NCBI GenBank assembly: GCA_003599025.1 | Contig: QZIL01000021.1 | Location: 3,965-67,964, forward strand | DNA: 64,000 nt | Direction: 5' to 3' | Source of the DNA: Nitrospiraceae bacterium | GTDB lineage: Bacteria > Nitrospirota > Thermodesulfovibrionia > UBA6902 | Part shown: in pieces, positions 14,954 to 41,991 of the stretch | Layout: every line of letters starts with the position of its first letter | Numbering within the stretch: position 1 is the stretch's first letter | Notes under the pieces: generated by a model | Databases searched by the model: none | Told to the model about the DNA's origin: nothing | Seen by the model: only the letters and a program-made list of their open reading frames with translations | Made by a program: the position numbers and the translations under genes

Positions 14954-16111
14954 TTAATACCTGTACAATTCCGTACATCTTACACATGCGGGAAGCATTC
15001 TGTTTTCCCGCACAGTGCTGCGAAACCTGACCGCTTTTTCACTGTTCCACACTTCAGCAAAACTTTCCGCCCTCACATTCCCGAATGAGTAATCGAAGTT
15101 CAGGCATGGTCTCAGTTCTCCGTCAGGGAATATATATCCTGTCATCCATGGACTTACACATCTGCCCTGTCCATTTGACGGGGCATATGAGGGATTAAGG
15201 TAATAATCATTAAGCTGCTCCTTCGAAAAATTGGGATACATGTCTATAGGGAAGTCCGGTTTGCTTCTGGAGATGTCCTTAATCTTTGCATGCAGTGCTT
15301 CAGGATCAACTTGCGGCTCACAAACAAAGCCCTCCCAGTTTAAGGAAGAACAGTCAAGCATCCGGTCAAACTCAAGCTGCTTCTCCATTGTGTCCCTGTC
15401 AAGAAAAATAAGATTGTGAAAGGTAAGGGAGTTTGCCCTGATTTCCTCTGCCACGGTCACCATCTGTTCAAGATGCCGATAATTGTGCCGGTTTATAGTG
15501 CACTGCAGATTAATCAGGGGGGTTTTTGTCTTCATCTTTTCTTTCAGGTCTGTTACCTCTTTAAGGCCGTCCATAATCCTGCTGTACAGACCGGGCACCC
15601 CGCGTATTTCATCATGAAGCTCCATCCCCCCGTCAACCGACACATTGAGTTCATCCAGCCCGCTCTCAACCAGCCCATGTCCATACCTGGATAGCATTGA
15701 CCCGTTTGTAATCATCAGGCAGTGAAGTTCTTTTTTCTTAATATATCCTATCAGCTCATGGGCATGGCGATGCAGAAGCGGCTCTCCCCCGAACAGGGTA
15801 ATATTAGGCCTGAAAGACGCAATGTCATCAATGATTTTTTTCATGTCTTCAACCGGCATATCAGCAGTCCTGTCCCCTGCGGGTTTATTTCTTGTGACAC
15901 CCTGGTCCCCCCACTGTCCGCACATCCTGCAGCGCAGGTTGCATCGATGAGTCAAAAACAGGGTGACAGCTTCAGGCAGCCCCGCCTCTCCATTGCCGGC
16001 ATAATATGCGTAATATGCCTTTGAACGTTTTGCCGCTACCTTACCTGCATATACAGGCTGGTTAAATATCTTGCCCAGAAATCTTCTGGAATTTCTCCAC
16101 GGGATTTGCAT
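14954..16111 (-). CDS. Radical SAM protein with SPASM/twitch domain (in the polysaccharide locus)
   Basis: CNLRCRMC, GGEPLL; C-terminal CVSPW..PC..CVRC. Confidence 0.9.
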   Translation of the reverse strand: MQIPWRNSRRFLGKIFNQPVYAGKVAAKRSKAYYAYYAGNGEAGLPEAVTLFLTHRCNLRCRMCGQWGDQGVTRNKPAGDRTADMPVEDMKKIIDDIASFRPNITLFGGEPLLHRHAHELIGYIKKKELHCLMITNGSMLSRYGHGLVESGLDELNVSVDGGMELHDEIRGVPGLYSRIMDGLKEVTDLKEKMKTKTPLINLQCTINRHNYRHLEQMVTVAEEIRANSLTFHNLIFLDRDTMEKQLEFDRMLDCSSLNWEGFVCEPQVDPEALHAKIKDISRSKPDFPIDMYPNFSKEQLNDYYLNPSYAPSNGQGRCVSPWMTGYIFPDGELRPCLNFDYSFGNVRAESFAEVWNSEKAVRFRSTVRENRMLPACVRCTELYRY

Positions 16112-27774: not shown

Positions 27775-27796
27775 ATTCTAATATTAAGGCGGTTAT

Positions 27797-29737
27797 CTAA
27801 ACCGGCTGGCTTTGCTCCCCGTAATAGCTCTCTTTATCACCATAGTGAATTGGATGTAACGCGGTACCCTTCTGAAGCCTGTTATGATTCAGGACTATTC
27901 CGGAAATATTGGCGCCGACAGATTCGATCTGGATTTTGGCCCTCAAAAGGGATTCCCTTGGCAACTTACCGACCTGATAACACAGAACAACACTGTCAAC
28001 CCTGGAAGCCAGAAGACTGGCATCGGTTACAGGCAGAACAGGCGGAGAATCAAAGAATATATAGTTGAACCTTCTCCTCAGCTCTTCAATCAGCTCCACA
28101 TTTTTTCCCGATTCGAGTATCTCTGCGGGATTAACAGGCGGGTGTCCGCTCGGAAGTATCCATATATTATCCATGCCTGAAGACCCGGTTATCATCTCAA
28201 GCGCCGCATCACCCAAAATAATGTCCGATATGTTCTTCAGCGCCTCATCCAGAGTCGCTGTTCCGGATATGACTTCTGTCAGACCGGGCCCGCTCCTGAT
28301 ACCAAAAGACCTGCTGACAGCAGGTTTCCTTAAGTCGGATGATACCAGCAGGGTTTTTGCTCCTGTCTGGGCAACAGCCAGTCCCAGATTAACAAGCACA
28401 GTTGTCTTGCCTTCCCCGGCTCCCGCGCTTGTGACAAGGATGGTCTTTCTGGAAGGGCCGAGCCTCAGGTTGGTCCTGATATTGCGGAAGGATTCAGCCA
28501 TAAGCGAGGTGGGCAGGTGATGGGTGATCATCCTGATGTATATATCAGCCGACTCCCTGCTGCTGATGTCCGGCATATTGGACGCAGGTTTTGACCGCCC
28601 CTTTTTGATATCTCTGTCTGCAGATGGAACCACACCCAGGACCGGCAGTTTCATTATATTTTCCGCCTCTTCAACGGTCCATATAGACCTGTCCATGGCT
28701 TCGAGGACGAAAACAAGGCCAATCCCTGTTAAAAGTCCTATGAGTCCTCCAAGAAGCACGTTGATATTTCCCGCTGTGTTTACAGGCGCGTTTGACAGTA
28801 CCGCGGGATCGATAATGGACACATCTCCCACTTTTTGCGCCTCTGTAATGCGCGCCTCTTCAAGTTTCTCCTTAAACATCATGTAGAGTTTTGTATTGAT
28901 TTCAACCTCTCGCGCCAGTTTGACCTGCTTAAGTTCCTGCTCCGACAATTCCATATTCTGAAGCGCGTATGAATCGCTTTTTATTTCGAGCCGTGATTCA
29001 AGGTCATTGATCTGCTGCTTGAGCTCTATGATCTTCGGGTTTTTTCCTGTATACCGCTGAGAAAGCCTGGCCAGCTGGTACTTCAGTTCCACAAGATTTT
29101 CCTGAAGATTGCCGGTCTCTTTACCACTGTAAGCAAGCTCCTTTAATCTGCTCGCCTCTTCTTTGGCCCCTCCCATGGTCCTCTCAGACTCTTCCAGCCT
29201 TTTGTTCAGGATCAACAACTGTTCTTCTATGAACAGCCGTGAACTGCGCGCCTGCTCTCTTTTCTCTCTCAAGTTTTCCTCAACATAAACAGCTGCCACC
29301 GTGTTGGCCAGATTCATGGCATCTTCTGCAATATTTGAAATTCCTGTAATCTCAATAATGTTAGTCTGGTCGAGCCTCTTTGTCTCGATCTTCTCCTGCA
29401 GATTACTCACAACCTTATGGACCTGGTCCATTGGTGAATCTTCCTGTATAAGTCCAAGCCTTATGGCAGAGTGCCTTATTATGGGATACCCCTTAATGAT
29501 ATTTGTCTGTGAAGCCATTATGTCTCCGGGATTATACACGATCCACTCTGTCAGGAGCCCCGCAATGGTTTTACGTTCTTCAATTTTTACAGTAGTTGAT
29601 GACTTGTACACAGGAGGCGCTGGAGGAAACAATATTAATCCGGCTATTACGCCTGTCAGCAGCGTAGCGAGTACAAGGAACTTCCTTTTGTAAAATATCC
29701 GTGTGTAATCTTTTATATTAAATTCATATTGCGGCAA
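27797..29737 (-). CDS. wzc: Wzc-type chain-length regulator/BY-kinase
   Basis: Two TM segments, coiled coil, ESFRNIRTN, Walker A GEGKTT, DLRKP, DSPP, C-terminal tyrosines; TTG start. Confidence 0.92.
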   Translation of the reverse strand: MPQYEFNIKDYTRIFYKRKFLVLATLLTGVIAGLILFPPAPPVYKSSTTVKIEERKTIAGLLTEWIVYNPGDIMASQTNIIKGYPIIRHSAIRLGLIQEDSPMDQVHKVVSNLQEKIETKRLDQTNIIEITGISNIAEDAMNLANTVAAVYVEENLREKREQARSSRLFIEEQLLILNKRLEESERTMGGAKEEASRLKELAYSGKETGNLQENLVELKYQLARLSQRYTGKNPKIIELKQQINDLESRLEIKSDSYALQNMELSEQELKQVKLAREVEINTKLYMMFKEKLEEARITEAQKVGDVSIIDPAVLSNAPVNTAGNINVLLGGLIGLLTGIGLVFVLEAMDRSIWTVEEAENIMKLPVLGVVPSADRDIKKGRSKPASNMPDISSRESADIYIRMITHHLPTSLMAESFRNIRTNLRLGPSRKTILVTSAGAGEGKTTVLVNLGLAVAQTGAKTLLVSSDLRKPAVSRSFGIRSGPGLTEVISGTATLDEALKNISDIILGDAALEMITGSSGMDNIWILPSGHPPVNPAEILESGKNVELIEELRRRFNYIFFDSPPVLPVTDASLLASRVDSVVLCYQVGKLPRESLLRAKIQIESVGANISGIVLNHNRLQKGTALHPIHYGDKESYYGEQSQPV

Positions 29738-29825
29738 AGAAAGTCACTCCTCTGTTTTATGAATGCAACATTTAGGATCGTTAACTTATTGCTACCTGTA
29801 AAAGTGATGTCCTGCCTTCATGGTC

Positions 29826-29897
29826 TGTCATTCCGGGCTTGACCCGGAATCCAGAAGAAGACTGGATTCCTCCCGATGCAACAGGACGGGAATGACA
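29826..29897. repeat. dRS3-like palindromic element between wza and wzc
   Basis: tgtcattccgggcttgacccggaatccag...ctggattcc...gggaatgaca. Confidence 0.75.
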
Positions 29898-29943
29898 CTG
29901 CGTGGGACATTTCTTCTGCGTCATTCAATAGCTCCGTCAAACC

Positions 29944-30978
29944 TTACTTTGACAGGGTCTTCACTGTTGTGCCGCCGGAAGTTATGGGGCCGAGAATCTG
30001 GCTCATGAAGTAATTCACATCTGCTATGAATTTTTTCGGAACGTAGACAATGTCTTCAGTCAGTATTTCAACGTTCTGACTTACATCTCTGCCCTTAAAA
30101 GCATCGTTCAGATTAATTCTCTTACCTTCAGGGTTCTCTTTCCCCCCCCTGATAAGCATGACGCTGGATGGCACAGAATCATCGGTAAAACCGTTTGCGC
30201 TGGCTATGGCCTCCAGCACAGACTTGCCGCCCGTCACATAATACACACCCGGAGTTCTCACTTCACCGAGGACAATGACCTTTCTGCGATCAAGCATTTC
30301 AGAGGTGGTTGGAATATAGATAATGTCCTCAGCCTGCACACGTATATTCTGTCCCAGGTCGCTCTTGTCAATGGCCTTGGACAGATCAAGCTTTAGTCCT
30401 GTGGGGTTTTGCTGCCCCTCCCTGATAAGTGTCACGCCTGAGGGGGATGCTGTGTCAGTGAAACCCTGCGCACTGGCTATGGCCTCCATCACGGTGTTTT
30501 CCCCTGTAACAAAATAGACCCCGGGATGTTTCACTGCTCCCATCACAACAACTTTTTTTCCGCCAGATTTTCTGAATGATATGGAGACCTCAGGGTGCTT
30601 GATATAATCTGTCAGTCTTGTTTTTATCCTCTCTTTAAGCTCGGCGAAGGTCAATCCCGAAGCCCTGATGTCCCCTGCCAGAGGAAAAGATATTCTTCCA
30701 TCAGGACGCACTACAACCTCTTCTCTCAGGTCTTCTTCAAGCCATACGGAAATAAACAGTACGTCCCCTTCCTGTATGATATATTCCCGGGAATTGTGCT
30801 CCGAGTGCGTATCAACTGTGAAATTGTCCTCTGCAGTATTTATTTTATTAATGGCCGCACTATGTGCATTAAAGGCGGAACCTTGAGTCAGCAATACAAG
30901 TACGCAAGCCCCCATTACAGGAATAAGGATACCACGGATTAAACTTGGCAGCAGTTTATTAAGTAAAGTATATTTCAT
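29944..30978 (-). CDS. wza: Wza-like polysaccharide export protein with two SLBB domains
   Basis: YIIQEGDVL, VRPDGRISFPLAG, two G.V..PGVY repeats. Confidence 0.88.
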   Translation of the reverse strand: MKYTLLNKLLPSLIRGILIPVMGACVLVLLTQGSAFNAHSAAINKINTAEDNFTVDTHSEHNSREYIIQEGDVLFISVWLEEDLREEVVVRPDGRISFPLAGDIRASGLTFAELKERIKTRLTDYIKHPEVSISFRKSGGKKVVVMGAVKHPGVYFVTGENTVMEAIASAQGFTDTASPSGVTLIREGQQNPTGLKLDLSKAIDKSDLGQNIRVQAEDIIYIPTTSEMLDRRKVIVLGEVRTPGVYYVTGGKSVLEAIASANGFTDDSVPSSVMLIRGGKENPEGKRINLNDAFKGRDVSQNVEILTEDIVYVPKKFIADVNYFMSQILGPITSGGTTVKTLSK

Positions 30979-30984
30979 TCTTTA

Positions 30985-31812
30985 TTAATAGTGAACCAGG
31001 CTGCCTTCCTTTTTTGCCTTTCTAACAGCATATGAAAAGGTCATGACCCCGACAGGCAGAAAGACTGCCGTAAAGAGAGCGAGTGCCCCTATATGCGGGA
31101 CAAGATCCGAAAAAGAGCTCCCTGCCAGAAGCGCGCCCCTGAGCCCGTTTAATGTATGAGTGATCGGCAGAAACATCGCAATGTCCTGGAGGAAATCCGG
31201 CAGAACAGCGACCGGATAATATACCCCGCCAAGGAGGCTGGAGGCTGTAAGGAACACCCAGGTCACAGGATCACCCTTTTTAAAAATCATGATGACGGCT
31301 GCAGATATAATGCCCAGACTGCCCGAGCTTGTTAAGGTCAGGATGAGAATAATCAGTGCAGCGGACAGTTCATTTAATTTCAGATTCACCTTGAAAATTA
31401 ATATCCCTATTATCAGGTACAGAAATATGTCAGCAGTTGCCAGAAGGAATTTCCATAGCGCCTGGCTTACAAGCATTATGGAGAGCCTCGTAGGAGTGAG
31501 CAGGATTGCTTCGAGTGTTCCGGTTATCTGTTCATTTCGTATCGCGTTTGCAAAGCTGCTCAGGCCTGATGAAAGGTAGCCGGAAAAAGCGATGCCGATC
31601 AATACAAAAGGGAAATATTCCCCTCCATATGCCTCCAGATAAGGACTCACTTTATAACCAAATGTTCTGGAAATAAAGAAGAACGTGAGCACAGTAAGAA
31701 CAATGCCTGAAAGATTGAAGAAAAAGAATAAACGGTAACTGGTATCTATAAGGAAGTCACGTTTTATGAAGGCATACGCCCTACGCAGAAACATAAGGTC
31801 CTTCCCTTTCAC
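30985..31812 (-). CDS. ABC-2 type exporter permease
   Basis: EQITGTLEAILLTP, GVYYPVAVLP, PITH. Confidence 0.9.
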   Translation of the reverse strand: MKGKDLMFLRRAYAFIKRDFLIDTSYRLFFFFNLSGIVLTVLTFFFISRTFGYKVSPYLEAYGGEYFPFVLIGIAFSGYLSSGLSSFANAIRNEQITGTLEAILLTPTRLSIMLVSQALWKFLLATADIFLYLIIGILIFKVNLKLNELSAALIILILTLTSSGSLGIISAAVIMIFKKGDPVTWVFLTASSLLGGVYYPVAVLPDFLQDIAMFLPITHTLNGLRGALLAGSSFSDLVPHIGALALFTAVFLPVGVMTFSYAVRKAKKEGSLVHY

Positions 31813-32587
31813 AGATGTCTGCAGGTCCGGTTACCCTTCTGAATATCTCATACAGGTCAGCCTCTGCTGATCCGGTTTCATCCCTCAACTCTCCTAAAGT
31901 ACCCATTGCCATAATCCTGCCGTGATGCATAATTGCTATACGGTCGCATATCTCTTCTGCCTCAGCCATCTGGTGTGTAGTCATAAAGACAGTCTTTCTT
32001 CTCTTTTCCACAAGCTCTGCTTTGATAAACGTTCTTAATTTAGAGGCCGCGAGCGGGTCAAGGCTCTTTGTCGCCTCATCAAGAAAAAGTATCTGAGGAT
32101 CATTGAGCAGGCTCCGGGCAATGAGCATCCGCTGCCTGATGCCGCTTGAGCATTTCTGGAAACTGATATCAGCCTCTTTCTCTATTTCGAGCAGAGAGAG
32201 GACCTCGCCTATTTTTTCCTTTGATGATTCAGAGGACAGTCCGGAGAGGGCTGCAAAGAAATCGAGGTTTTGCCTTCCGGTAAGTCTCCAGTAAAAAGAC
32301 CTGTCATCACCGCTCACAAGACCGATGGACGCCTTGACTTTGCTCTCATAAAGAGACGTGTCATATCCGTTTACAATAATACTGCCCGACGTAGGAATTA
32401 TGAGTGTGCAGAGTAGCTTGATCAGGGTTGATTTCCCTGCCTGGTTCGGCCCGACCAGGCCGAAGAGTTCCCCCTCCCTCACGTCAAGTGCTACCCCGTC
32501 AACTGCTTTAAGGATCTCCCTTCTGCCCCATATCGGCCCCTGCCGGAAATGCTTCTTTAAATTCGATGTATGTATGGCAATATTCAT
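31781..32587 (-). CDS. ABC exporter ATP-binding protein
   Basis: GPNQAGKST, SSGIRQR, LFLDE, TTH. Confidence 0.92.
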   Translation of the reverse strand: MNIAIHTSNLKKHFRQGPIWGRREILKAVDGVALDVREGELFGLVGPNQAGKSTLIKLLCTLIIPTSGSIIVNGYDTSLYESKVKASIGLVSGDDRSFYWRLTGRQNLDFFAALSGLSSESSKEKIGEVLSLLEIEKEADISFQKCSSGIRQRMLIARSLLNDPQILFLDEATKSLDPLAASKLRTFIKAELVEKRRKTVFMTTHQMAEAEEICDRIAIMHHGRIMAMGTLGELRDETGSAEADLYEIFRRVTGPADICEREGPYVSA

Positions 32588-34254
32588 GACCTGAGTGATA
32601 CCTGTTTTGAAAAATGAAACATTACTCTTAAAGCAGTTCCTGCCCCTGCACGTATCCTTTTCACATAATCATGGACACCTGCCCTCTCACCTTCCTTTTT
32701 CTGAATCAGGGAGAGTTCGCTTTTTGAAGGGAAAAGTAATCTCCACAAAAACAGAAACCTGTCCTTTATCGACTCATTCATGCCAAGGCAGATAAGCCAC
32801 TCGCCCGTTAAAATAGGGGTGCCGCGCAATACAGAAGAAAGAAACGTGCGCTCGATAAGGCCGATCCTCCGGGGCCTCAACCTCCTGAGGACCTCCTCAG
32901 GTATATCTGCATTGAAAATCCCTGATACAAGGTACAGAGTGTAATAAACACTCTTGGAAAGATTAAAGGCAGATGCGTCCTTAACAAGCATCTCCCAGTC
33001 AATTTCTTCACCCTTTGATCTCAGGACCTCGTTAATATCGCACAGTCTTACAAGGGGATGAAAGGAATGATTCAGTGCGTGCATGCATAAGTAAATGATG
33101 TTGTGGTGAAGGGAAAAGGTCCTTATGTGCGCATTGTCCAGATTCATTGATATCGATTCATCCCACAACCTGTTCATATCAATCCTTTGCATTACATTTA
33201 AATGGAAAGGTGAGAAATTAACGATATGCCAGTGAACATGCAGTGAGACAGGAGAAACGCCATCTGACCTGTATACGATGCTGTTGCGATACTGCCCTGT
33301 TGCTACAGTGCTGAAATCCCTGATCTCAAATTCAGGTTTGAACCCGTGTCTGCGTAATGTACGGTCTGCTTTTGCAAGGTCATCTTTTCTGACAAGAAGA
33401 TCTATGTCCCCCATCGGGCGCATACCGACATCTTTATAAACCGATTGGGCCAATGCAAGCCCCTTAAAGACTATAATCTCTATCTTCTCCCTGTTAAAGG
33501 CAGCTGCAATCATTTCAAGAGAATGGAGCATCGGGATGTTCTTGCCTGAAACAGAATAATAAAAGTCCTTCAGATGGCCCCTGACATGACAGGGGGCCAC
33601 GTGCTCTATCCCTTCTATCTTGTTCAATGTCCTGTAAACTAAAGATGCCGTGTCCTCTCCCTGAAGCTGTTTCAGAAAATAGTCCCAGTCAACATACTGG
33701 TCAAGTATCTTACAGACAGCCATTTCACGCTCATTATCAAGGACCGTGACTGAGCAGAGGCGTATAAGCCTGTCTTCTGCCTTCATCTCCCGGCTGAACC
33801 TGTTCATTGTGCGGCATTTAATTCGGTACGCCGTCATCTTGAAAAGCTGGTAAAAGTCAAATAAAACGTTGATCGCCCTGCCGTGCCATTTATCCAGACA
33901 GATGGAAAATAATTTCTTATGGATCTTGACTACCCTGCCCAGCAATTGCCGGTCTTTGAAGGCTTCTTCTTCCGTATATGCCATGTCCGCCTTGGGCACA
34001 AGTATGACTTCCCCATGCTGAACTGTTTTTCTTACTAGCCTATGAAGAATGAGTGCGGAGTTTCTTTCAAACAGGATTATGTCCCCCGGCTCCACTTCTG
34101 ATGCACTGCTTTTTTGTACTACAACCCGGTCCATAGGATTTATAATTGGCTGCATGCTGCCGGTAGCTGTGTGGAAAGACCATTCCTTTACGTTCAAGAC
34201 TGATTCCTTTATATAGTCAACGCAGAATAATCCGGCTTTTTCTTCAATATCCAT
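32584..34254 (-). CDS. Fusion of an S24/S26-like peptidase and a nucleotidyltransferase (NTP_transf_5-like)
   Basis: N-terminal TGSMQP...PGDIILF...LHRL; C-terminal FKGLALA...RPMGDIDLLV...HVHW...LCD. Confidence 0.82.
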   Translation of the reverse strand: MDIEEKAGLFCVDYIKESVLNVKEWSFHTATGSMQPIINPMDRVVVQKSSASEVEPGDIILFERNSALILHRLVRKTVQHGEVILVPKADMAYTEEEAFKDRQLLGRVVKIHKKLFSICLDKWHGRAINVLFDFYQLFKMTAYRIKCRTMNRFSREMKAEDRLIRLCSVTVLDNEREMAVCKILDQYVDWDYFLKQLQGEDTASLVYRTLNKIEGIEHVAPCHVRGHLKDFYYSVSGKNIPMLHSLEMIAAAFNREKIEIIVFKGLALAQSVYKDVGMRPMGDIDLLVRKDDLAKADRTLRRHGFKPEFEIRDFSTVATGQYRNSIVYRSDGVSPVSLHVHWHIVNFSPFHLNVMQRIDMNRLWDESISMNLDNAHIRTFSLHHNIIYLCMHALNHSFHPLVRLCDINEVLRSKGEEIDWEMLVKDASAFNLSKSVYYTLYLVSGIFNADIPEEVLRRLRPRRIGLIERTFLSSVLRGTPILTGEWLICLGMNESIKDRFLFLWRLLFPSKSELSLIQKKEGERAGVHDYVKRIRAGAGTALRVMFHFSKQVSLRS

Positions 34255-34262
34255 GTCACATT

Positions 34263-34307
34263 AACCTCCTCCCCTTACCAAGGGGGGGCTGGGGGGGTCC
34301 CTCCTTC
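34263..34307. repeat. GC-rich palindromic element directly after the precursor stop
   Basis: ccccttaccaagggg hairpin followed by ctggggggg. It includes the GGAGG RBS of the next gene. Confidence 0.65.
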
Positions 34308-34454
34308 CTAAGCCATCAGTTTTGTACAGGGAACCGCCTTCATACATACTCTCGGAGCGATACGTGAGGAATTGCATACCACTGACAATACTTCAATCTT
34401 CTTCTCATATACGATCTCAGGCTTTTTATATGCTTTTTTCTTCTCTTCCTTCAT
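34308..34454 (-). CDS. 48-aa putative RiPP precursor peptide (not in the ORF track)
   Basis: MKEEKKKAYKKPEIVYEKKIEVLSVVCNSSRIAPRVCMKAVPCTKLMA*. The ATG lies 1 nt after the rSAM stop, with a GAGGTG RBS. It has a YxxP leader motif and Cys27/37/43. Confidence 0.85.
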   Translation of the reverse strand: MKEEKKKAYKKPEIVYEKKIEVLSVVCNSSRIAPRVCMKAVPCTKLMA

Positions 34455-34455
34455 C

Positions 34456-35484
34456 TCACACCTCTAAACATGTTCCCCTGGCAGTATTTTTCAGCGCTTT
34501 TGCAAGCATACACGCCGCACTCGACGGCCCCAGATAATCTTCATCTTCAGACACCGCCAGTCCTGGGCAGCGGCGGCAGTATGGCGCCTTATCACACGAT
34601 CTGCAGGTATGGAGTTCATCAAACTTAATCGACCTTATTCGCTGAAAATGTCCTGACTGCATAATCTGTTCAATTGATTGTTCCCGTACGTTTCCTGCGT
34701 CCTGTTTCCAGCCGACGCAGGGATAAACTTCACCATATGGGGATATCAAAAGGTTGTTCAGTCCGGCAGTACACATAAATGTGTCGTCATTAACAGACTC
34801 CAATGGCTCAAAAGAAGCGGCCCTGTCGTCCTCCCTGAATATTTTAGTCATACCATCGGTATCGAGTCTGTAACGCAACGTGTCCCTTGAACCGTCATCT
34901 TTCGGTACAACGGTCATGTCATATACGAAATCCGAGTCGAGTTCATGGGACAGCTTTGTTAAAGCACCCAGCTGGTCTGCATTCTGATTCATCAGGAGGC
35001 TTTTAACTACTCTTTTTACCCCTCTTTGACCAAGCAGCTGAAAAGCCCTCATGGTCTTCTTAAAGGAACCTTTCGTGCCGGTAATACTGTCATGTATTTC
35101 AGGGTCAGCAGCGTATACGCTCATCTCTACCGACAGGGGATTGAGTTGCTTTATCTCATCAGCCATTTCACTGCTGATAAACGTGCCGTTTGTTAACAGC
35201 CTCAATGCAAACCCTTTGCTGCGGCTATAACGCGCAATTGTGAAAAAATCCTTTCTAGTTAAAATCTCACCGCCGCTGAATGTTATATACAGGGACTGAA
35301 GGGCTGCCAGTTCATCAATAACAGACATGATCTCTTCTGTGGTTAGCTCTTTTTTATCATCCCTGCGGACGCAGTAGCAGTGGCTGCAGGCCATGTTGCA
35401 TCTGTGTGTAAGCTCCCAATGTACAATAAAGGGGATGTTCCTCTCCATTGTCTTTTTTATAATGTCGTTGTAATGGTCCTTCAT
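34456..35484 (-). CDS. Radical SAM/SPASM peptide-maturase-like protein
   Basis: CNMACSHC, SGGE; full SPASM pattern CTAG..YPC..CRSC..YCRRCPG..C. Confidence 0.92.
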   Translation of the reverse strand: MKDHYNDIIKKTMERNIPFIVHWELTHRCNMACSHCYCVRRDDKKELTTEEIMSVIDELAALQSLYITFSGGEILTRKDFFTIARYSRSKGFALRLLTNGTFISSEMADEIKQLNPLSVEMSVYAADPEIHDSITGTKGSFKKTMRAFQLLGQRGVKRVVKSLLMNQNADQLGALTKLSHELDSDFVYDMTVVPKDDGSRDTLRYRLDTDGMTKIFREDDRAASFEPLESVNDDTFMCTAGLNNLLISPYGEVYPCVGWKQDAGNVREQSIEQIMQSGHFQRIRSIKFDELHTCRSCDKAPYCRRCPGLAVSEDEDYLGPSSAACMLAKALKNTARGTCLEV

Positions 35485-35498
35485 ATTGTCCTTCTTTA

Positions 35499-35712
35499 CC
35501 TTTCGGTTACATTAAAATGTGTATAGCGGGCCGGGTAGACTTGCAGCAAAAGCTTTACCATCGATACCTCAGAGAAGCTTTTTCAAGGCATATCTGCGTT
35601 TTTCGTAATTCCACCATGTGTTACGTCCTGCTATACTCACTAATTCCAATGTCCTATCGCATTTGTAAAGGTTTTGCTGCATGTCCACCCGCCGCTTTGT
35701 ACATAATCAAGG
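35499..35712. mobile_element. 214-bp MITE-like element, copy 2 (between the PqqD and rSAM genes)
   Basis: Shares aaaagctttacc, cgatacct, ccatg.gttacgtcctgc, atcgcatt and gtaaaggtttt with copy 1. CC...GG ends and the same length. Confidence 0.7.
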
Positions 35713-35718
35713 TTTAGT

Positions 35719-36021
35719 TTAAGTAAGGGCCTCTTCCTTCGGGTGTTCAAGATATATGAGCATGTCTCTCGCGTACAGATCATTAATAAATTCTCTCGTG
35801 TCGTTCAGCGCGTCATCATAAGACACGTCAAATTCCTCTGAAATGACCAAAGCGATCCGGTCTGTTCTGAGGTCCCCGTTTAAAAGCTCCCATATCCGCG
35901 AACCTGTCCCGTTCAGGACCATCACCTTGTTCTCCTGAGGTGAAATAATTACCGCTTCGTTGTCTATCACCCGTGATGCTGTTTGAGGCGACCTGTCAGG
36001 ATACATGCTGTTTAAGTCCAT
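35719..36021 (-). CDS. PqqD-family RiPP recognition element (RRE)
   Basis: EAVII...LNGTGSRIWELLNG...EEFDV...DTREFINDL, the canonical stand-alone PqqD pattern. Confidence 0.9.
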   Translation of the reverse strand: MDLNSMYPDRSPQTASRVIDNEAVIISPQENKVMVLNGTGSRIWELLNGDLRTDRIALVISEEFDVSYDDALNDTREFINDLYARDMLIYLEHPKEEALT

Positions 36022-36808
36022 CTATATGCCTCCAGAATGAATTATCTTTTGTAAAATGCATTTCATACAAGCCATATTCAACAAGAATTCTGCTGAATAT
36101 ATCAAAGAGTTTCTCAACCGGCTGCAGCTTGTTCGGAATATGTGGAACCGTTAAGATATCTGCCAGGGCCTGCGAGAGGGACAATTCTTTTATATACGTT
36201 GTGTTGTCCTGCTTCAGTGTAAATATTCCGCCAATATCATAGCCTCTGTTTTCCCTTTTGCCTATATGCATGTCCAGCCAGTGGGGGGCAGTGTAGGCCT
36301 GATATTTGCCGTTGCTTCGTTTAATGATCACCATATCATCACTTAATATGGTACAGTCGTCTGACAACGCAGACACAGTTGATTTACCTGCGCCTGAGTG
36401 GCCCATAAATATATAAACTTCATCATCCTTCAGTATCCCCGCTGCGTGCAAAACCACCGCATCTTCGTGCAGGATAAGCCTGAAGGTAAACATATTTCTC
36501 AGGAGAGTGCCGAGTCCCATTAACATGCCGCTTCTGCTTATAAGGGCCGAGCCGCAGGTAAGGTCTTTGTTAATTTTACTCTCCAGGTGATCGTCTGACA
36601 GTCTTAATTCATCGCCAGTGACCGACAGACCGGCCCAGGAGGAATTATTGACATACGGCTCATCAGTAAGCGTTATGTCCAGAGTAAGGGATGGCGGCCT
36701 GTCAGAAAGGAAAAGAGAATAATCCCTCCGGACACTGCTGATGAATTCAGAGGACTCTGATCTTAACATGATGCAAATTTCTGCAACTTCTATTTTTATC
36801 TCTTTCAT
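35996..36808 (-). CDS. HPr-kinase-like P-loop protein (ScmC/PadeK-like)
   Basis: LHAAG...GHSGAGKST...LSDD. The ATG at 36808 forms a TGATG overlap with the HD-GYP stop; the track gives 36832. Confidence 0.82.
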   Translation of the reverse strand: MKEIKIEVAEICIMLRSESSEFISSVRRDYSLFLSDRPPSLTLDITLTDEPYVNNSSWAGLSVTGDELRLSDDHLESKINKDLTCGSALISRSGMLMGLGTLLRNMFTFRLILHEDAVVLHAAGILKDDEVYIFMGHSGAGKSTVSALSDDCTILSDDMVIIKRSNGKYQAYTAPHWLDMHIGKRENRGYDIGGIFTLKQDNTTYIKELSLSQALADILTVPHIPNKLQPVEKLFDIFSRILVEYGLYEMHFTKDNSFWRHIDGLKQHVS

Positions 36809-37866
36809 CAGTCTCCGCTTTGCTTCAGACATTCCTTGATGTGAATAATGGGATAGTTCAGTAAATTAATTATGTTCTGTTCGTCCGGTTTTTTGTAATC
36901 ACTGTTTAAAAGCACATGCAGTACCGGCCTTGTTGGGTGGCCCTGATTGATTGCAGCAACCCGGCATGTTTCTCCGGTATTTAATCTGACCAGGCTTCCG
37001 ACAGGGTAGACCCCGACCATATTAATAAAAGCCTTCATTACTTTATAGTCATAGGAGTGTTTCATCTGTAATATGTTATGTACCGATTCATGGGGCATAC
37101 ATCTGTCGCGATGCGGCCGTGAATGGGTCAGGGCCTCATATGTGTCCGCAAGATGTATTATCCGGGAGTATATATTGAGGGATTCTCCTCTCAGGCCACG
37201 GGGATAGCCTGATCCGTCTATGCGTTCATGATGCTGAAGTGCGACCTGAACAGCTACTTCGGGCAATTCATCGGCCTCCTCCAGAATTCCGGCACTCATG
37301 AATGTATGGTTCTGTATTTCCCTGTATTCTTTAGAGGAAAGTTTTCCGGGCTGCATGGCCTGCTTCATATATTTCATCATTCCTATATCATGAAGAAATG
37401 CCGAGATACCGAGTTCTGTTAATCCGGTCTTGTCGTAACCTATGTCCTGCCCGATTTTAATTGATAATATACTCACATTGACTACATGGCTGCTGAGATA
37501 ATCCTGCGCGTTCCCGGACATTAGAACAGGCAGATGACTGTTATTGAGGAGCAACTGCTCGACAAGTTTCTCTACGCATAAATTTACAGGACCACACTTA
37601 ATAACTTCATTCCCGGACAACCTGTCATGGATCTCTTTTGCAAGAGCCATTGCCATATGATAAAGGTCCGAACTTTCACTTTCATTTTGTGCAGTGCTTT
37701 TCTGCTTTTCAGAAAGCTTTGAACTGAATACATCAAAGGACGTGTCGTCCAGACCACCCGGCCCGCTATATCCCTCTGCAGAAATATCGCGCTCTGCCTG
37801 TGTCTCCTGTTCTATAGCCTTATGCCTGATATAATCTCTGTGACTGCTGGCCTTCACTTCTTTCAC
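36808..37866 (-). CDS. HD-GYP c-di-GMP phosphodiesterase domain protein
   Basis: LHDIG, HHERIDGSGYPRG, ADTYEALT. Confidence 0.92.
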   Translation of the reverse strand: MKEVKASSHRDYIRHKAIEQETQAERDISAEGYSGPGGLDDTSFDVFSSKLSEKQKSTAQNESESSDLYHMAMALAKEIHDRLSGNEVIKCGPVNLCVEKLVEQLLLNNSHLPVLMSGNAQDYLSSHVVNVSILSIKIGQDIGYDKTGLTELGISAFLHDIGMMKYMKQAMQPGKLSSKEYREIQNHTFMSAGILEEADELPEVAVQVALQHHERIDGSGYPRGLRGESLNIYSRIIHLADTYEALTHSRPHRDRCMPHESVHNILQMKHSYDYKVMKAFINMVGVYPVGSLVRLNTGETCRVAAINQGHPTRPVLHVLLNSDYKKPDEQNIINLLNYPIIHIKECLKQSGD

Positions 37867-38008
37867 CCAGTCTTAAATCCGATTCCGGAGACTGCTCCGC
37901 CTTTTCAGTTACATAAATGCTTTTTGCACAATGAAACTGACAATCCCTGATTTTTTTAAATACGCTAACTGCAAATACAGTGATGAAGCCCTACAGTCAG
38001 GCAGATAG

Positions 38009-38024
38009 AGCAATTAATATGCCA
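38009..38024 (-). promoter_or_regulatory. Sigma54 (-24/-12) promoter
   Basis: The minus strand reads TGGCAT-ATTAA-TTGCT, matching TGGCAC-N5-TTGCW with exact spacing, ~140 bp upstream of the HD-GYP gene. Confidence 0.8.
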
Positions 38025-38446
38025 TTACAATGAGTTATAGGTGGTTATCCTATTGGACATATGGGTGGATAACCTATTGTTATTATTCGATAATTTCAGC
38101 GCAAGCAATTGTTGACTTACAACCTGTTGAATCGAATGGATTTCCAGATATTCCACTTATCATAGAAGCCTCTTTTCAAAAAAGCCTGCATGTGACAGAC
38201 ATTCACCATCAATTAAATCTGGACATGCTCAGGCGTCAGTTGTATGACGTATTGGTGCAGCACATGTCAAAAATAATATAGAGAAACTTCTTCCTGCCCA
38301 AAATTACAAATAATGGATCTAAATTATTTTGGTGAACAGTTGCCTCATTTGTTTTTTCATGAAAGTCTTAAGATTTTCTCTCGTGAGTCGAAAAGATATA
38401 AACCAAAAGGTAAATATGCTCTTGTAAATTTTTGCTATAACTGCTC

Positions 38447-39436
38447 GTGAATAATATAAGAGAAAACATATCACGTAAACTTGCCAATCCCCGCACCAGG
38501 GCATATGTCCATTTTTTCTTACTGTTTATCGGCGCTGCAGGCATACTGCTTACGTCTTTGAACTGGGAAGTATTGCAGGGAATTCAGGAGAACCAGGACA
38601 AGGTACTGCATTATAAGGCAGGGCGTTTGATTGCAGTATCATGCTTTCTCCTGGTTTATTTCTGCATCCTTGCCCGGGTCCTGTTTGTAGGGGAGCACAG
38701 AAGTTCCATGACAGTCTTTCTGTTGTGGCTTCCGACCATGCTGGCTGCGGGCCTTGTCATAGGGATTGTTGTTGCACTTGCTTTTGCAGTTATTAAGGAA
38801 ACAATAGACGGAGGAGGAGCAGGTTCTGTAGAATGGCTCGATATAACAGCAACACTGGACGGCGCCGCATCACTTACAGGTCCCATAGCACTCATCATAG
38901 CTATTACACCGGTACTTATCCCCCTTGATATGCTTATGCAACTGCCGAAACTGCTGCTGTCTGATGTCAGGACCGGCTTAAAGACATTAGACAATTATAT
39001 TAAGGAAAGCAGATCTCATGAAAACCTGAAAAAACATACTGACGTGCTCGTTGTTGAAGACGATATTATGTGCGCAACCACAGTGATGAATTTCTGCCGC
39101 AGGAATGACCTTAAGTGTCATCATATATCGACTGCTTCAGAGGCTGATACATATCTTCGGGACAATATCAGGAACATCCGTCTTGTTGTCCTTGACAATT
39201 TCCTCAGGGTAGACGAGTCCGGCAACAGAATGACCGGAGGTGAATGGCTGATGATGATAAGTGAAGAATTCCCTGTAAATAAACGCCCGTTTCTTGTGGT
39301 GATCATTTCAGGACATACAGAGTTTCTGAGAGACGCTGCTTCACAGGCGAACCTGGTATTGCAGAAACCCTGGGACCCTCACGCCTTACAGGACTTTCTC
39401 AGAGAGAATAAAATAATAAACCATAGGAGGACATAA
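38447..39436 (+). CDS. Membrane protein (VanZ/YfiM-like DKxxH..KExxD..DxxA segment) fused to a receiver domain
   Basis: DKVLHYKAG, IKETID, DITATLDG; receiver motifs VLVVEDD, VVLD, IISG, QKP. Confidence 0.7.
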   Translation: MNNIRENISRKLANPRTRAYVHFFLLFIGAAGILLTSLNWEVLQGIQENQDKVLHYKAGRLIAVSCFLLVYFCILARVLFVGEHRSSMTVFLLWLPTMLAAGLVIGIVVALAFAVIKETIDGGGAGSVEWLDITATLDGAASLTGPIALIIAITPVLIPLDMLMQLPKLLLSDVRTGLKTLDNYIKESRSHENLKKHTDVLVVEDDIMCATTVMNFCRRNDLKCHHISTASEADTYLRDNIRNIRLVVLDNFLRVDESGNRMTGGEWLMMISEEFPVNKRPFLVVIISGHTEFLRDAASQANLVLQKPWDPHALQDFLRENKIINHRRT

Positions 39437-39439
39437 CAA

Positions 39440-40570
39440 ATGATAAGAGAGAAAAGACACCTTATAGCAATTGTTGATGATGAGCCTAACAGCCTTAAAG
39501 CCATGCGGAGGCAGCTCATGGATTCTTATGATGTCGCAACGTTTAATTCTGCAGATGAACTGCTCGGCTCACTTCACAAAATAAGTCCGAGTCTGTTCAT
39601 CCTTGACTGGCTGATGCCCGGGAAGGACGGGATATCTCTCTGCCGGGACATAAGAAAAATGCATCGGTTTGATCTGGTCCCCATTGCCTTTTACAGCGGG
39701 ATTGATCCGTCCACTTCAAACATACAAAAAGCCCATGAGGCAGGCGCGCAGACTTTCATCCCGAAGGCATCTTTTTCGTCATTTACGCTTATGCATATCG
39801 ATACACTTGTGGACGGTTATGATCGTATGTCCAGATATCTGAGGCATCAAAAGACCATGCTCTCCGTACTGAAACACGATATGTCCAACCTGCTTACGGG
39901 AATAATCACCGGCATGCATGTCCTGCTGATGGACGATTATTTTAAAAATGATCAGGTCAGGGAGGAAACAAATACGATCACTCAGGCGTGTGACAAACTT
40001 CTGACCCTTTTCGGAGACCTCAGTGAAGTAATTGTTGATAATGACCGGAATATAAACAAGCCCCTGCCCTGCGTAAAAGTCACAGAAATCAGAGCGTCCC
40101 TGCACAATTCGCTCAGGGACATCATGCGTAAAGTCATCATTGAATTTCCGGACACATTAGAACTCGCCTGCGACCCGGTTGCAACTGCACGTGCTATTCA
40201 TTACATGGTGAGGTTTGTGGATAAAACCGTAAGTCAGCATATTGATTTACTGATACGATCCGGCATGGGTGAGTCCGGAGTGACCTTCACTATTAGTCTG
40301 CACGGTAATTTCAAAGAGTGCCTTGAATCCTCCCTCATAAATATACTCGATCTCGAAAATTATGACGACCGGCACGATTTACTGGCCGTCCAGTATTTTC
40401 AAAACTATCTGAACCAGAACAACACTGACATCTCCATTATATATAATGGAACTGCAACCGAGATCAGTTTTCTGGTCCCTCAGCAATCTCAGGACCAGCA
40501 TAGCCAGGCACAGCCGGATACAGTTTTCAGCTCCTGCGCGGCAGAAGATATCAGTGTCAGTCCGCTCTGA
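39440..40570 (+). CDS. Receiver domain + HisKA with degenerate HATPase domain
   Basis: IVDDE, ILDWLMPGKDG, H-box LKHDMSNLL; no recognisable N or G boxes. Confidence 0.75.
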   Translation: MIREKRHLIAIVDDEPNSLKAMRRQLMDSYDVATFNSADELLGSLHKISPSLFILDWLMPGKDGISLCRDIRKMHRFDLVPIAFYSGIDPSTSNIQKAHEAGAQTFIPKASFSSFTLMHIDTLVDGYDRMSRYLRHQKTMLSVLKHDMSNLLTGIITGMHVLLMDDYFKNDQVREETNTITQACDKLLTLFGDLSEVIVDNDRNINKPLPCVKVTEIRASLHNSLRDIMRKVIIEFPDTLELACDPVATARAIHYMVRFVDKTVSQHIDLLIRSGMGESGVTFTISLHGNFKECLESSLINILDLENYDDRHDLLAVQYFQNYLNQNNTDISIIYNGTATEISFLVPQQSQDQHSQAQPDTVFSSCAAEDISVSPL

Positions 40571-40710
40571 GAAAAGTGCCCTGACTTAAAGAAATGGCGT
40601 GCCTTGTTTCTGACAATCAATTCTCTTCGGGTTTGGAATGATTGATCGGGTGAATTAAAAGAAGAAGTTTCCGGTGAGACACCTTATACACAGAAGTCCC
40701 GCCGGACTGT

Positions 40711-41991
40711 CTATTTGTTCATCATATCAAGAAAATCCTTGTTGCTCTTTGTCCCCGTAATCTTGTCGAGCAGGAACTCCATGCTTTCGACTGTGCTGAG
40801 GGAATGAAGCACCTTTCTTAATATCCACATCCTCTGAAGCGTGCTCTTGTCAACAAGAAGTTCTTCCTTCCTGGTGCCCGAGGCGTTGATGTTAATGGTC
40901 GGGAATATCCTCTTGTCTACGAGTTTTCTGTCAAGGTGCAGCTCCATATTGCCGGTCCCCTTGAATTCCTCAAAGATAACATCATCCATCCTGCTGCCTG
41001 TATCAATAAGGGCAGTCGCAAGGATCGTCAAACTTCCTCCCTCTTCGATGTTTCTGGCAGCTCCGAAAAATCTCTTCGGCTTCTGGAGCGCGTTGGAATC
41101 AAGTCCGCCTGAAAGCACCTTGCCGCTTGCAGGTATCACTGCATTGTAAGCCCTGGCGAGCCTGGTAATTGAATCCAGAAGGATAACGACGTTTTTCCTG
41201 GTTTCCACGAGTCTCTTGGACCTTTCAATAACCATCTCGGCAACCTGCAGATGCCTCTGAGGGGGTTCATCAAACGTCGAACTTATTATCTCTGCATCCA
41301 CCTGTCTTTTCCAGTCAGTGACTTCTTCAGGTCTTTCATCGATCAGAAGTACGATAAGATGGACTTCCGGATGGTTTTTCTTTATTGCCTTTGCTATGGA
41401 CTGGAGCAGCATGGTCTTACCTGTTCTCGGGGCTGCGACAACCATGCCTCTCTGTCCCATACCTATCGGCGTTACAAGGGACATAACGCGTGTAGAATAA
41501 TCCGACTTGCTGTATTCAAGGTTTATTGCCTGAGTTGGATAATACGGTATGAGGTTGTCAAACAGGGCCCTCTCAATGCTCTCATCAGGCGGCTCATGGT
41601 TAACGGCCTCTACTTTAAGAAGCGCAAAATACCGCTCGCTCTCCTTCGGCGGCCTTATCTGTCCGGTAACAAGGTCCCCTGTACGGAGGTTGAACCTCCT
41701 TATCTGTGACGGGGAGACATATATATCATCCGGCCCCGGCAGATAACTGTAGTTCGGGGAACGGAGAAAACCAAAACCATCCGGTAGAATCTCGAGTACC
41801 CCCTCCCCGAAAATCAGACCGGTCTTTTCAGTCTGGGCCTGGAGAATAGCGAAGATCAGGTCCTGCTTCCTCAGACCTCTCGCACCTTCAACGCTCAGTC
41901 CTTTTGCCATCTTTGTCAGCTCATCGATCGTCTTTTCTTTGAGATCCGTAATATTCATGCTATCTCCTTGATTATTGCTTTTGTTTGCCAT
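40711..41991 (-). CDS. rho: Transcription termination factor Rho
   Basis: [45 protein letters not shown]. The start may be 41958. Confidence 0.98.

Follow-up and report, generated by a model that had tools for sequence, protein, structure and literature searches.

We analysed a 64,000-nucleotide (nt) stretch of DNA (the window) from a Nitrospiraceae bacterium (assembly GCA_003599025.1, contig QZIL01000021.1, positions 3,965 to 67,964; contig C4 of a genome that is about 70% complete). An earlier reading of the sequence, here called the original prediction, had placed eight co-oriented genes at 30985-37866 and proposed that they form a cassette for a peptide made on the ribosome and modified after translation (a RiPP), with a radical S-adenosylmethionine (rSAM) enzyme acting on a short cysteine-bearing precursor. 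A check of open reading frames (ORFs) found all eight genes at these coordinates and on the minus strand. The cassette is best read as a pathway resembling the lpp cluster of Paenibacillus alginolyticus, the source of the Linear Polyphosphorylated Peptides (LPP; Popov et al., Nat Commun 2026, PMC13381572), with an rSAM/SPASM maturase and a Cys core in addition, a ScmC-family kinase, a peptidase-nucleotidyltransferase fusion and an ABC-2 exporter.

The cassette and its exopolysaccharide operon

Families were assigned by scanning the window proteins with Pfam and NCBIfam models and applying the curated cut-offs. The first gene of the operon (36808-37866) encodes an HD-GYP domain protein of 352 amino acids (aa; PF13487 HD_5, 91.8 bits) in which HD stands at residue 159, HHE at residue 212 and GYP at residue 220; it is likely a cyclic di-GMP phosphodiesterase or regulator. 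It is followed by genes for a P-loop kinase-like protein of the ScmC family, with a fold of the phosphoenolpyruvate carboxykinase (PEPCK) and HprK type (35996-36832; precomputed label PF27840), and for a discrete PqqD-type RiPP recognition element (RRE) of 100 aa (35719-36021; PF05402, 55.4 bits). Further along lie genes for a putative rSAM/SPASM peptide maturase of 342 aa without a fused RRE (34456-35484; Radical_SAM 89.5 bits, SPASM 46.6 bits) and for the 48-aa candidate precursor peptide (34308-34454), which is conserved but belongs to no Pfam or NCBIfam family. The last three genes encode a 556-aa fusion of an S24-like N-terminal domain to a nucleotidyltransferase (NT) domain (32584-34254; PF14907 NTP_transf_5, 174 bits), a DrrA-like ABC transporter ATPase (31781-32587; TIGR01188, 228.5 bits, cut-off 312; PF00005, 90.4 bits) and an ABC-2 type permease (30985-31812; PF01061, 52.5 bits).

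One nucleotide is common to the HD-GYP stop codon and the kinase ATG. The kinase and PqqD genes overlap by 26 nt, GGAGG preceding the PqqD start; between the rSAM TGA and the ATG of the peptide gene there is 1 nt, and GAGGTG lies upstream of that ATG; the fusion and ATPase genes overlap at ATGA, and the ATPase and permease genes overlap as well. These junctions show translational coupling. The tight joins that had been described were thus found at several junctions, as overlaps or 1-nt gaps, but not between the PqqD and rSAM genes, which are 234 nt apart owing to the insertion of a dispersed repeat (35485-35718, minus strand). This spacer is missing from an 81%-identical relative (L002), in which about 17 nt lie between the two genes and the HD-GYP gene likewise precedes the kinase gene. 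The repeat has 24 matches in its own genome, itself included; among the non-self matches listed, the ten best share 70-80% identity. With copies of about 130-230 nt it looks like an intergenic element of the miniature inverted-repeat transposable or repetitive extragenic palindromic type; a further copy lies at about 14703-14836 (G000:C4:18667-18800), between a second rSAM gene and a GT4 gene of the adjoining operon.

The cassette had been taken to end at 30985. Instead, the gene run continues unbroken into an exopolysaccharide (EPS) operon of about 20 kb, contiguous downstream on the same strand (10678-30978). Six nucleotides separate the permease stop from the start of a Wza-like exporter gene (29944-30978), which is followed by Wzc-like (27797-29737) and Wzy_C (26410-27774) genes and, at the far end, by a WecA-like gene (10678-11718), all on the minus strand and all assigned by family match. 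Between them the operon also holds genes for a MOP flippase, methyltransferases, glycosyltransferases, an aminotransferase, a WbqC-like protein, a deacetylase and a second rSAM/SPASM protein. The last of these (14954-16111, minus strand, 385 aa) stands among the glycosyltransferases and has as its best NCBIfam match the tungsten-cofactor maturase (132.7 against a cut-off of 380). Wza-type exporters are outer-membrane components of diderm bacteria.

From this arrangement the cassette appears to be transcriptionally continuous with the Wza/Wzc/Wzy operon. Given that continuity, and with an HD-GYP protein encoded by the first gene, production of the peptide probably goes along with that of the polysaccharide. 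The setting recurs in relatives: among the close ones, the three whose flanks are long enough (L036, L037 and L047) have a Wza-like or Wzc-like gene next to the cassette. The same holds for L016 and L096, and in L047 the order Wzc, Wzy_C, flippase, methyltransferase is repeated beside the cassette.

A conserved cysteine peptide and its relatives

The 48-aa ORF encodes MKEEKKKAYKKPEIVYEKKIEVLSVVCNSSRIAPRVCMKAVPCTKLMA. Its layout suggests a leader of about residues 1-24 with a Y9-x-x-P12 motif and a core of about residues 25-48 with Cys27, Cys37 and Cys43; the predicted core contains neither Asp nor Glu and ends in Ala. A search of this peptide and nine related ones against NCBIfam and Pfam at E≤10 gave nothing useful, the only matches being lasso_cyano (0.21, on the YxxP stretch), TaqI_C (0.098) and DUF5795 (0.033). 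A word-indexed protein search returned two entries only, its own and P0027 (83% identity). The P0027 entry derives from one contig of 9,437 nt, and the same contig size is recorded for a kinase, P0001 (98%), and a fusion protein, P0028 (95%), which suggests that all three lie on one contig. Between the window peptide and P0027, residues 6-29 and all three Cys are identical, while six of the eight changes (E4L, K5R, S30A, I32N, A33G, R35H, V41A, T44S) fall in the core. A constant leader, a drifting core and fixed Cys are the pattern of RiPP precursors.

Comparison by phmmer of the window proteins with six-frame segments of 96 loci revealed peptide homologues in L036, L037 and L047 (E 5e-8 to 8e-10). 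In both L037 and L047 the peptide homologue directly follows the rSAM gene, and the order PqqD-rSAM-peptide is repeated. The genes after it encode, in L037, an S24 protein that stands alone, then an ABC-2 pair and then a Wza-like protein; in L047 they encode an NT-only protein, then an ABC-2 pair and then a Wzc-like protein (5e-201). In L036 the homologue follows the kinase gene and adjoins a Wzc-like gene. Eleven residues are invariant in the alignment of these three peptides with the window peptide and P0027 (M1, Y9, K11, P12, Y16, K18, L23, V26, C27, C37 and C43). With a cut placed after residue 24, the five peptides have Ser or Ala at position -1 and Val, Thr or Ala at -3; signal peptidase I favours small residues at such positions. 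The C-terminal residue in this subfamily is Ala, Thr or Ser.

The conserved short Cys precursor of the original prediction was therefore borne out: homologous peptides with three invariant Cys occur at the cassettes of relatives, which were checked for its absence and have it at the same position. That the ORF is a chance frame, the enzymes acting on something else, is barely credible. Its lack of a Pfam or NCBIfam family and the return of only its own entry and P0027 in the word-indexed search would fit such a frame, but its position and sequence are kept in L036, L037, L047 and P0027, its start is preceded by a ribosome-binding site and lies 1 nt from the rSAM stop, and a hidden Markov model (HMM) of such peptides is specific to cassette neighbourhoods (see below). 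Judged by this conservation, ribosome-binding site and coupling, the ORF appears to be a real gene, and it is highly likely that the cassette is a RiPP cassette with this peptide as its precursor.

A wider peptide set was assembled from 35 short ORFs, chosen by eye from the matches to a loose regular expression, and the window peptide (36 peptides from 34 loci plus the window). In distant kinase loci such ORFs adjoin kinase, PqqD or rSAM genes; their N-terminus is basic, a Y-x-x-P motif follows, and the first Cys comes 17-20 residues after that motif. Of the 36 peptides, 22 contain three Cys, 12 contain two and 2 contain four; the C-terminal residue is Ser in 30/36 (…GS, …TS, …QS) and Thr in 2/36, the peptides forming a few related families rather than independent cases. 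The peptide HMM matched 38 of 16,616 small six-frame segments at E<0.01, a partly circular result because 35 of the 38 are seeds, so that the count measures specificity and not discovery. All but one of the matches (37/38) lie on the same strand as, and at most 702 nt from, a kinase, PqqD or rSAM gene; the remaining one is on the opposite strand and adjoins the rSAM gene of L029. Two of the three non-seed matches (L010 10594-10800 and L014 10560-10772) are YxxP peptides near kinases that contain no Cys, in loci without an rSAM match, which fits an rSAM enzyme acting on Cys.

Neighbourhoods were counted in 95 loci, the window's own being left out. Many loci are short contigs, so that all of these counts are lower bounds; the locus set also omits relatives 59-82% identical. 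A PqqD gene was found within 3 kb of the kinase in 41/95 loci and an rSAM gene within the same distance also in 41/95; the peptide HMM matched in 26 of these 41 rSAM-bearing loci. Within 6 kb there was an S24-like domain in 21/95, an NT domain in 9/95 and an ABC-2 permease in 5/95. Wza-like and Wzc-like genes occurred within 10 kb in 3/95 and 4/95, and an HD-GYP gene within 3 kb in 3/95.

A separate observation from the same loci concerns giant Peptidase_C25 (gingipain-like) proteins of 650-2,850 aa, which are encoded near the ScmC-type kinase in 23/94 loci (L009, L011, L012, L014, L015, L020, L023-L026, L029, L037, L039, L040, L047, L049, L050, L063, L066, L068, L074, L083 and L094) and, among the 27 loci whose two flanks each reach 5 kb or more, in 14. 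The association is repeated in loci titled Chloroflexota and Acidobacteriota and in window-type loci, and the L074 protein combines an N-terminal S24 domain with eight DUF11 repeats and C25. The Peptidase_C25 family includes a sortase-like enzyme that joins proteins to a glycan. A Peptidase_C25 scan of the window's own genome gave no match, but control genomes were equally matchless and the genome is 70% complete, so this is not evidence of absence.

The putative modifying enzymes

In a search of the PDB with a profile of 19 RRE homologues, the best match was the lasso protein TbiB1 (1.8e-16), followed by 9x8z_B, a 'PqqD family protein' (1.3e-11), the lasso PqqD chaperone 9x90_B (1.3e-10) and TfuB1 (5.1e-9), with PqqD itself reaching only 1.3e-8. 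By this profile the RRE appears nearest to lasso B1 proteins and 9x8z_B. A complex prediction for PqqD and the peptide scored 0.47 against 0.01 for the best control, with at least 96% contact agreement between runs and a partner pLDDT (predicted local distance difference test) of at least 54, a verdict of 'weak support'. The mark it passed is reached by 58/80 solved complexes and 2/110 mismatched pairs, and at scores ≤0.60 by 7/80 and both mismatches; because RRE-leader complexes have already been solved, the pass may reflect likeness at most.

The CX3CX2C motif of the rSAM enzyme occupies residues 29-36 and thus leaves no room for an N-terminal RRE. Seven SPASM cysteines were located (238, 256, 294, 297, 303, 306 and 325), in agreement with the seven-Cys SPASM protein that had been predicted. 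Among the 25 NCBIfam rows listed, the enzyme aligns in a single stretch over about residues 14-330 with StsB (127.6 bits), AlbA and SkfB, and over 23-329 with the tungsten-cofactor oxidoreductase maturase TIGR04317 (72.5 bits); MftC, AhbD and NirJ match with higher scores but are confined to the rSAM core. The best PDB match is SkfB (6e-16).

Part of this evidence would favour a different product, a small cofactor or signal in the style of pyrroloquinoline quinone or mycofactocin, for which the rSAM enzyme would begin the excision or rearrangement of a few residues of the peptide. Its top NCBIfam match is the mycofactocin maturase (142.3 bits), PqqE also matches and is the second PDB match, and the RRE belongs to the PqqD family. 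We nevertheless regard a cofactor as unlikely. The MftC and PqqE matches comprise the rSAM core (16-190) and a separate second stretch and are far under cut-off, and the RRE profile favours lasso B1 (1.8e-16) over PqqD (1.3e-8). In the operon no further genes of a cofactor pathway were noticed, while an ABC-2 exporter of its own and a leader peptidase are encoded, and the core varies among close relatives while its Cys are kept, as is typical of peptide products.

Another reading confines the peptide branch to an LPP-like linear phosphopeptide and assigns the rSAM enzyme to the polysaccharide, for example to sugar modification. The operon does run into EPS genes, with the rSAM/SPASM gene at 14954-16111 among the glycosyltransferases, and the published LPP clusters, as described in the available text, work without an rSAM enzyme (PMC13381572). 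Against this, the peptide ATG follows the rSAM stop after 1 nt, the PqqD-rSAM-peptide order is kept in L037 and L047, the three Cys are invariant while two kinase-adjacent peptides of loci without an rSAM match have none, and the rSAM enzyme, which has no RRE of its own, is encoded near a discrete one. The chance that it serves the polysaccharide is, in our view, slim. An action on the peptide is the preferred reading.

The kinase probably starts at M9 (36808), which gives 270 aa as in its homologues. Its family label, PF27840 (Atlas name ScmC), is a precomputed one that stands on all 25 homologues found and was not derived by scoring the model itself. In the Atlas, PF27840 is the family of 27 of the 30 nearest feature matches, and in the three best clusters 42-64% of members carry it. 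Across 25 sequences there is no variation at H129, the P-loop G144-S-G-x-G-K-x-T152, L163, S164 or D165; D166 reaches ≥90% conservation only in a 16-row alignment (A2). The AlphaFold2 (AF2) model (pLDDT 89.3) has as its best folds ATP-PEPCK (E 4.6e-8) and then HprK/P (E 1.2e-3), with TM scores normalised by the query of 0.45-0.56 to ATP-PEPCK structures, and a kinase profile run against PDB sequences matches only P-loop stretches and PEPCK. NCBIfam scores stay below cut-off for ScmC (31.1 against 125), HprK_rel_B (27.5) and HprK_rel_A (TIGR04352, 25.8 against 200); by the last of these the kinase fails as a member of the HPr-rel-A system.

The family is large: at the level of 50%-identity cluster representatives, the 25-sequence profile retrieves 35,870 proteins at E≤1e-3, 14,218 at 1e-10 and 2,433 at 1e-30. 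Chloroflexota, Bacillota, Acidobacteriota and Bacteroidota are the phyla in which the nearest Atlas clusters are most frequent, and the relatives come from Chloroflexota, Acidobacteriota, Nitrospiria and others. Closer to the window, the kinase is present in 5/41 relatives' genomes including its own, in 0/6 other genomes of the same genus and in one other genus at 81% identity, a patchy, accessory pattern. Natural fusions of the ScmC kinase with PqqD (P0011, 377 aa) and of Peptidase_S24 with ScmC (an Atlas cluster of 69 members) support a functional link of kinase, RRE and S24 peptidase.

The N-terminal domain of the fusion protein matches Peptidase_S24 (PF00717) over residues 33-109 just under the cut-off (23.1 against 23.3), and its best NCBIfam match is archaeal signal peptidase I (TIGR02228 sigpep_I_arch, 34.2 against 51.85); NTP_transf_5 covers residues 188-447. 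Nine more proteins of 523-566 aa share the fusion (49-95% identity, 94-100% query cover), two of which begin after the catalytic Ser column, while distant relatives are NT-only. In the fusion alignment Ser33 is present in 7 of the 8 rows that cover the column (Cys in P0035), His71 in 11/11 and Asp90 in 10/11. Invariant in the NT domain are K264, G265, R279, M281, D283, D285, H343, H392, H396 and D406. In the AF2 model (pLDDT 83.5) the N-terminal part resembles LexA, UmuD and signal peptidases, and the C-terminal part the nucleotidyltransferases MenT1 (1.6e-4), ANT(2'')-Ia and TM1012. By sequence, the fusion had no PDB match at E≤1, and its N-terminal 118 aa gave chance-level chaperonin matches only.

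NT matches at E≤1e-10 occur in 91 of 400 sampled other genomes of the phylum (92/401 with its own), and in two of these (G417 and G302, 28-30% identity) the match also covers the peptidase domain. The window's genome has a third NTP_transf_5 paralogue at G000:C40:19656-20516 (E 1e-27 to the window fusion). Orthologues of the ABC-2 permease flank the cassette in L037 (1e-74) and L047 (2e-74).

As to the surroundings, a candidate attenuator hairpin in the 53-nt spacer after the peptide gene was rejected, its fold being no better than those of shuffled sequences (z 0.56). An Rfam scan of 27000-41000 at E≤0.1 returned 0 matches. Promoter-like sites (22, against 15.7±3.8 expected) and terminator-like sites (12, against 7.6±3.0) within 29500-38500 were near noise, and no operon boundaries were drawn from them. 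The sequencing runs listed with part of the stretch are three DNA runs of one study, none recorded as RNA, which speaks neither for nor against the 48-aa ORF being a gene. Two divergent genes (38447-40570, plus strand) encode a 329-aa protein without a family match and a 376-aa response-regulator receiver protein that matches HisKA weakly; both might regulate the cassette and the EPS operon. Elsewhere in the window (6344-7753, minus strand) lies a gene for a trypsin-like HtrA protease fused to TPR, with sub-threshold matches to magnetosome MamA (124 against 200) and MamE.

Proposed pathway and relation to known systems

As given in the available text of PMC13381572, the LPP core set consists of a signal peptidase I-like peptidase, a stand-alone RRE, a kinase resembling HprK, an NTP transferase and an exporter, and the leader motif is YxxPxVLxHQxIxFET, then xxS. 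The peptidase LppS needs S29, H68 and D93, cleaves after T-1 and depends on the RRE LppB, and the kinase LppK places multiple phosphates on core Ser3. The window cassette shares with this system an archaeal-type signal-peptidase-like leader protease with Ser, His and Asp, a discrete RRE related to lasso B1, by general type a P-loop kinase and an uncharacterised NTP transferase, a dedicated exporter, an N-terminal YxxPx[V/I] leader, the polysaccharide-locus setting and the lack of a macrolactam cyclase. Compared by residue numbers, the spacings of Ser33, His71 and Asp90 are 38 and 19, against 39 and 25 in LppS, and LppS gives an experimental precedent for the proposal that the S24/S26-like domain may be a leader peptidase (PMC13381572). 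The window peptide can be laid over the LPP motif with Y9, P12, I14, V15 and I20, then V22-L23-S24 and V25-V26-C27.

The two systems also differ. The window peptide lacks the HQ and FET residues of the LPP leader, and the window cassette has an rSAM enzyme and a Cys core, which LPP clusters as described do not; the term 'Radical SAM' is absent from that paper's main text (PMC13381572). LPP has its peptidase and NT as two proteins, which are fused here, the exporter is MsbA-like there and a DrrA-like ATPase with an ABC-2 permease here, and the kinase is called HprK-like there but carries the Pfam ScmC label here. The LPP family is called restricted to Bacillota (PMC13381572), whereas the window operon has a Wza-type exporter and its kinase has relatives in several other phyla.

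Combining these comparisons, we propose the following pathway. The 48-aa product, whose gene, leader and Cys are conserved, serves as the precursor. The discrete PqqD protein would bind the Y-x-x-P-x-I motif of the leader, as lasso and LPP RREs do, a step suggested by family likeness and by the one complex prediction described above. With the RRE holding the leader, the rSAM enzyme would act on the three-Cys core and most likely form Cys-derived thioether cross-links, a proposal prompted by the fact that the only named peptide maturases that align near full length are sactipeptide maturases. By analogy with LppK and the paeninodin kinases, the ScmC-family kinase would phosphorylate a core hydroxyl, with Ser29, Ser30 and Thr44 as candidates; the NT domain may then decorate the phosphate, as in pseudomycoidin. 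The fused signal-peptidase-like domain would remove the leader, with a cut after Ser24 according to the overlay on the LPP motif, and the ABC-2 pair would export the product. We consider the scheme as a whole likely. Its specific chemistry, with thioethers, phosphorylation and any nucleotidylation, is drawn from analogy and is more tentative, falling somewhat short of an even chance.

Several points weigh against the scheme. The kinase has no Hpr_kinase_C match in Pfam, and its fold is nearer PEPCK than HprK/P. All scores of the rSAM enzyme lie below the curated cut-offs, and its best one is to MftC, through the core only (cut-off 265). The inserted 234-nt repeat splits the kinase and PqqD genes from the rSAM and peptide genes. 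The comparison with LppS, LppK and LppN was made by published description and not by sequences; in that description LppK does not accept Thr, and no activity was seen for LppN in the system used (PMC13381572). The invariant Cys27 stands at the site of the LPP phospho-Ser3, where the kinase-site analogy fails, and the L047 peptide has Thr at the site of the window's Ser29. Finally, Ser ends 30 of the 36 peptides of the wider set, but Ala ends the window peptide.

The accessory genes also recall the phosphorylated lasso peptides. According to the available text of PMC8498205, paeninodin-type kinases phosphorylate the precursor at its C-terminal Ser, the nucleotidyltransferase of pseudomycoidin attaches one or two hexoses to this phosphate, and in several lasso clusters a nucleotidyltransferase is fused to the B2 leader protease, a fusion logic parallel to that of NT with an alternative protease in the window. 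The window shares with these clusters an HPr-kinase-like enzyme, a discrete PqqD RRE, an NT and an ABC exporter, and the wider ScmC peptide set ends in Ser, the residue that those kinases modify, in 30/36 cases. It differs from them in having no cyclase or B2, another protease fold and an rSAM enzyme, and in a peptide that ends in Ala and has no acidic residue in its core.

The absence of a lasso cyclase and of B2 had been noted in the original prediction and held: the window contig contains neither Asn_synthase (PF00733) nor Transglut_core3 (PF13471). In this 70%-complete genome, matches to the former fall only on contigs C50, C53, C40 and C43, including a 639-aa ORF on C50, and the sole match to the latter is on C59. 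C59 carries a second, paralogous cassette (L105, 2955-8063), which has neither an rSAM enzyme nor a cyclase. It encodes a lasso-B1-like PqqD, a 53-aa FxxP peptide and a kinase with a sub-threshold Hpr_kinase_C match, and further a lasso B2 protein (38.3, cut-off 33), a protein that matches NTP_transf_5 at 176 bits and an ABC-2 pair. The permease of this pair shares 47% identity with the window permease. By its gene content it appears to be a B2-type linear phosphopeptide cluster. Comparison of the two cassettes points to a common core of RRE, kinase, NT and ABC-2 exporter that goes with one or the other of two leader proteases, an rSAM enzyme being present or absent.

These distant genes leave room for the window cassette to be a phosphorylated lasso cluster with a cyclase and a B2 that lie in other parts of the incomplete genome, where the B2 protein on C59 and the 639-aa ORF on C50 are found; its kinase, PqqD, NT and ABC set is common to paeninodin-type clusters (PMC8498205). 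We hold this to be very unlikely. The B2 gene on C59 belongs to a separate, complete cassette that has an RRE, a peptide, a kinase, an NT and an ABC-2 pair for itself, and the window cassette has a different leader peptidase built in. A lasso macrolactam also requires an Asp or Glu acceptor in the core, and residues 25-48 hold none.

For the combination of kinase, PqqD and rSAM enzyme, SynChlorMet had been named as the likeness. This stood in that a ScmC-family kinase-like protein, a PqqD-family protein and an rSAM/SPASM enzyme are encoded side by side and in the Pfam label of the kinase (PF27840), but not in the NCBIfam scores: all four SynChlorMet cut-offs are missed (ScmC 31.1 against 125, ScmD 28.5 against 100, ScmE 92.4 against 400, ScmF 68.1 against 400). 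The window has one adjacent rSAM gene and not two, and in addition the peptidase-NT, ABC-2, HD-GYP and EPS genes. With sactipeptides and ranthipeptides the cassette shares a seven-Cys SPASM enzyme, its near-full-length alignment with StsB, AlbA and SkfB, the top PDB match to SkfB and a Cys core; it differs in scores far under cut-off, a discrete instead of a fused RRE and a YxxP leader. We know of no kinase, NT or signal-peptidase partners in these classes.

The literature searched, to which about 1.7 million PMC articles and the subscription journals did not belong, contained no experimental paper on the ScmC kinase family and none on SynChlorMet, which is defined bioinformatically; among the papers listed, matches to Scm gene names were unrelated letter coincidences, both accessions being absent from those papers. 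There was no relevant paper on HprK with rSAM and RiPP, none on the acidobacterial-type peptide motif and, among the papers listed, none on gingipain together with rSAM RiPP terms. PF14907 occurred in one work, on phosphonates. The RRE-Finder paper (PMC7470986) and a 2025 RRE paper (PMC12710340) had 0 occurrences of kinase, HPr or signal-peptidase terms, and among the papers listed LPP was described only in PMC13381572.

The cassette had been put forward as an uncharacterised RiPP class. This has to be narrowed: its non-rSAM genes match the LPP core set as published and in part characterised in 2026, whereas the half formed by the rSAM enzyme and the Cys core is uncharacterised, and the match of the full cassette to a characterised pathway is partial (PMC13381572). 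Already known, as far as the available text goes, are the set of kinase, RRE, protease, NT and exporter, the YxxP leader and the polysaccharide setting; new, by the literature searched, is an rSAM-bearing, LPP-like cassette built on a ScmC kinase.

LPP clusters often lie inside capsular polysaccharide loci, for reasons that their authors left open together with the biological role (PMC13381572). One may speculate that the window product is no free peptide of the antibiotic kind but a thioether-stapled phosphopeptide, with sugar placed on its phosphate by the NT domain, that is made and exported together with the Wza/Wzc polysaccharide as its primer, anchor or cap, forming a peptide-polysaccharide conjugate. 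Sets of RRE, kinase, NT and peptidase near polysaccharide loci both in Bacillota and here (PMC13381572), the Wza-like or Wzc-like genes that adjoin the cassette in the nearest relatives and the giant Peptidase_C25 proteins near the kinase in 23/94 loci all fit this idea, but we give such a conjugate only a small chance.

The cassette links, in one compact operon, the rSAM type known from the bioinformatics of SynChlorMet and ScmC with the LPP and the phosphorylated lasso peptides, which were partly characterised between 2016 and 2026. Compact and tightly coupled, the operon could suit heterologous expression. The ScmC kinase family is large and little studied, and the cassette could show what these kinases and their rSAM partners do to Cys peptides with a YxxP leader. 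It also bears on why such peptide pathways occupy polysaccharide loci, the question left open by the LPP authors in the available text of their paper (PMC13381572), and working it out would extend LPP-type logic beyond the Bacillota.

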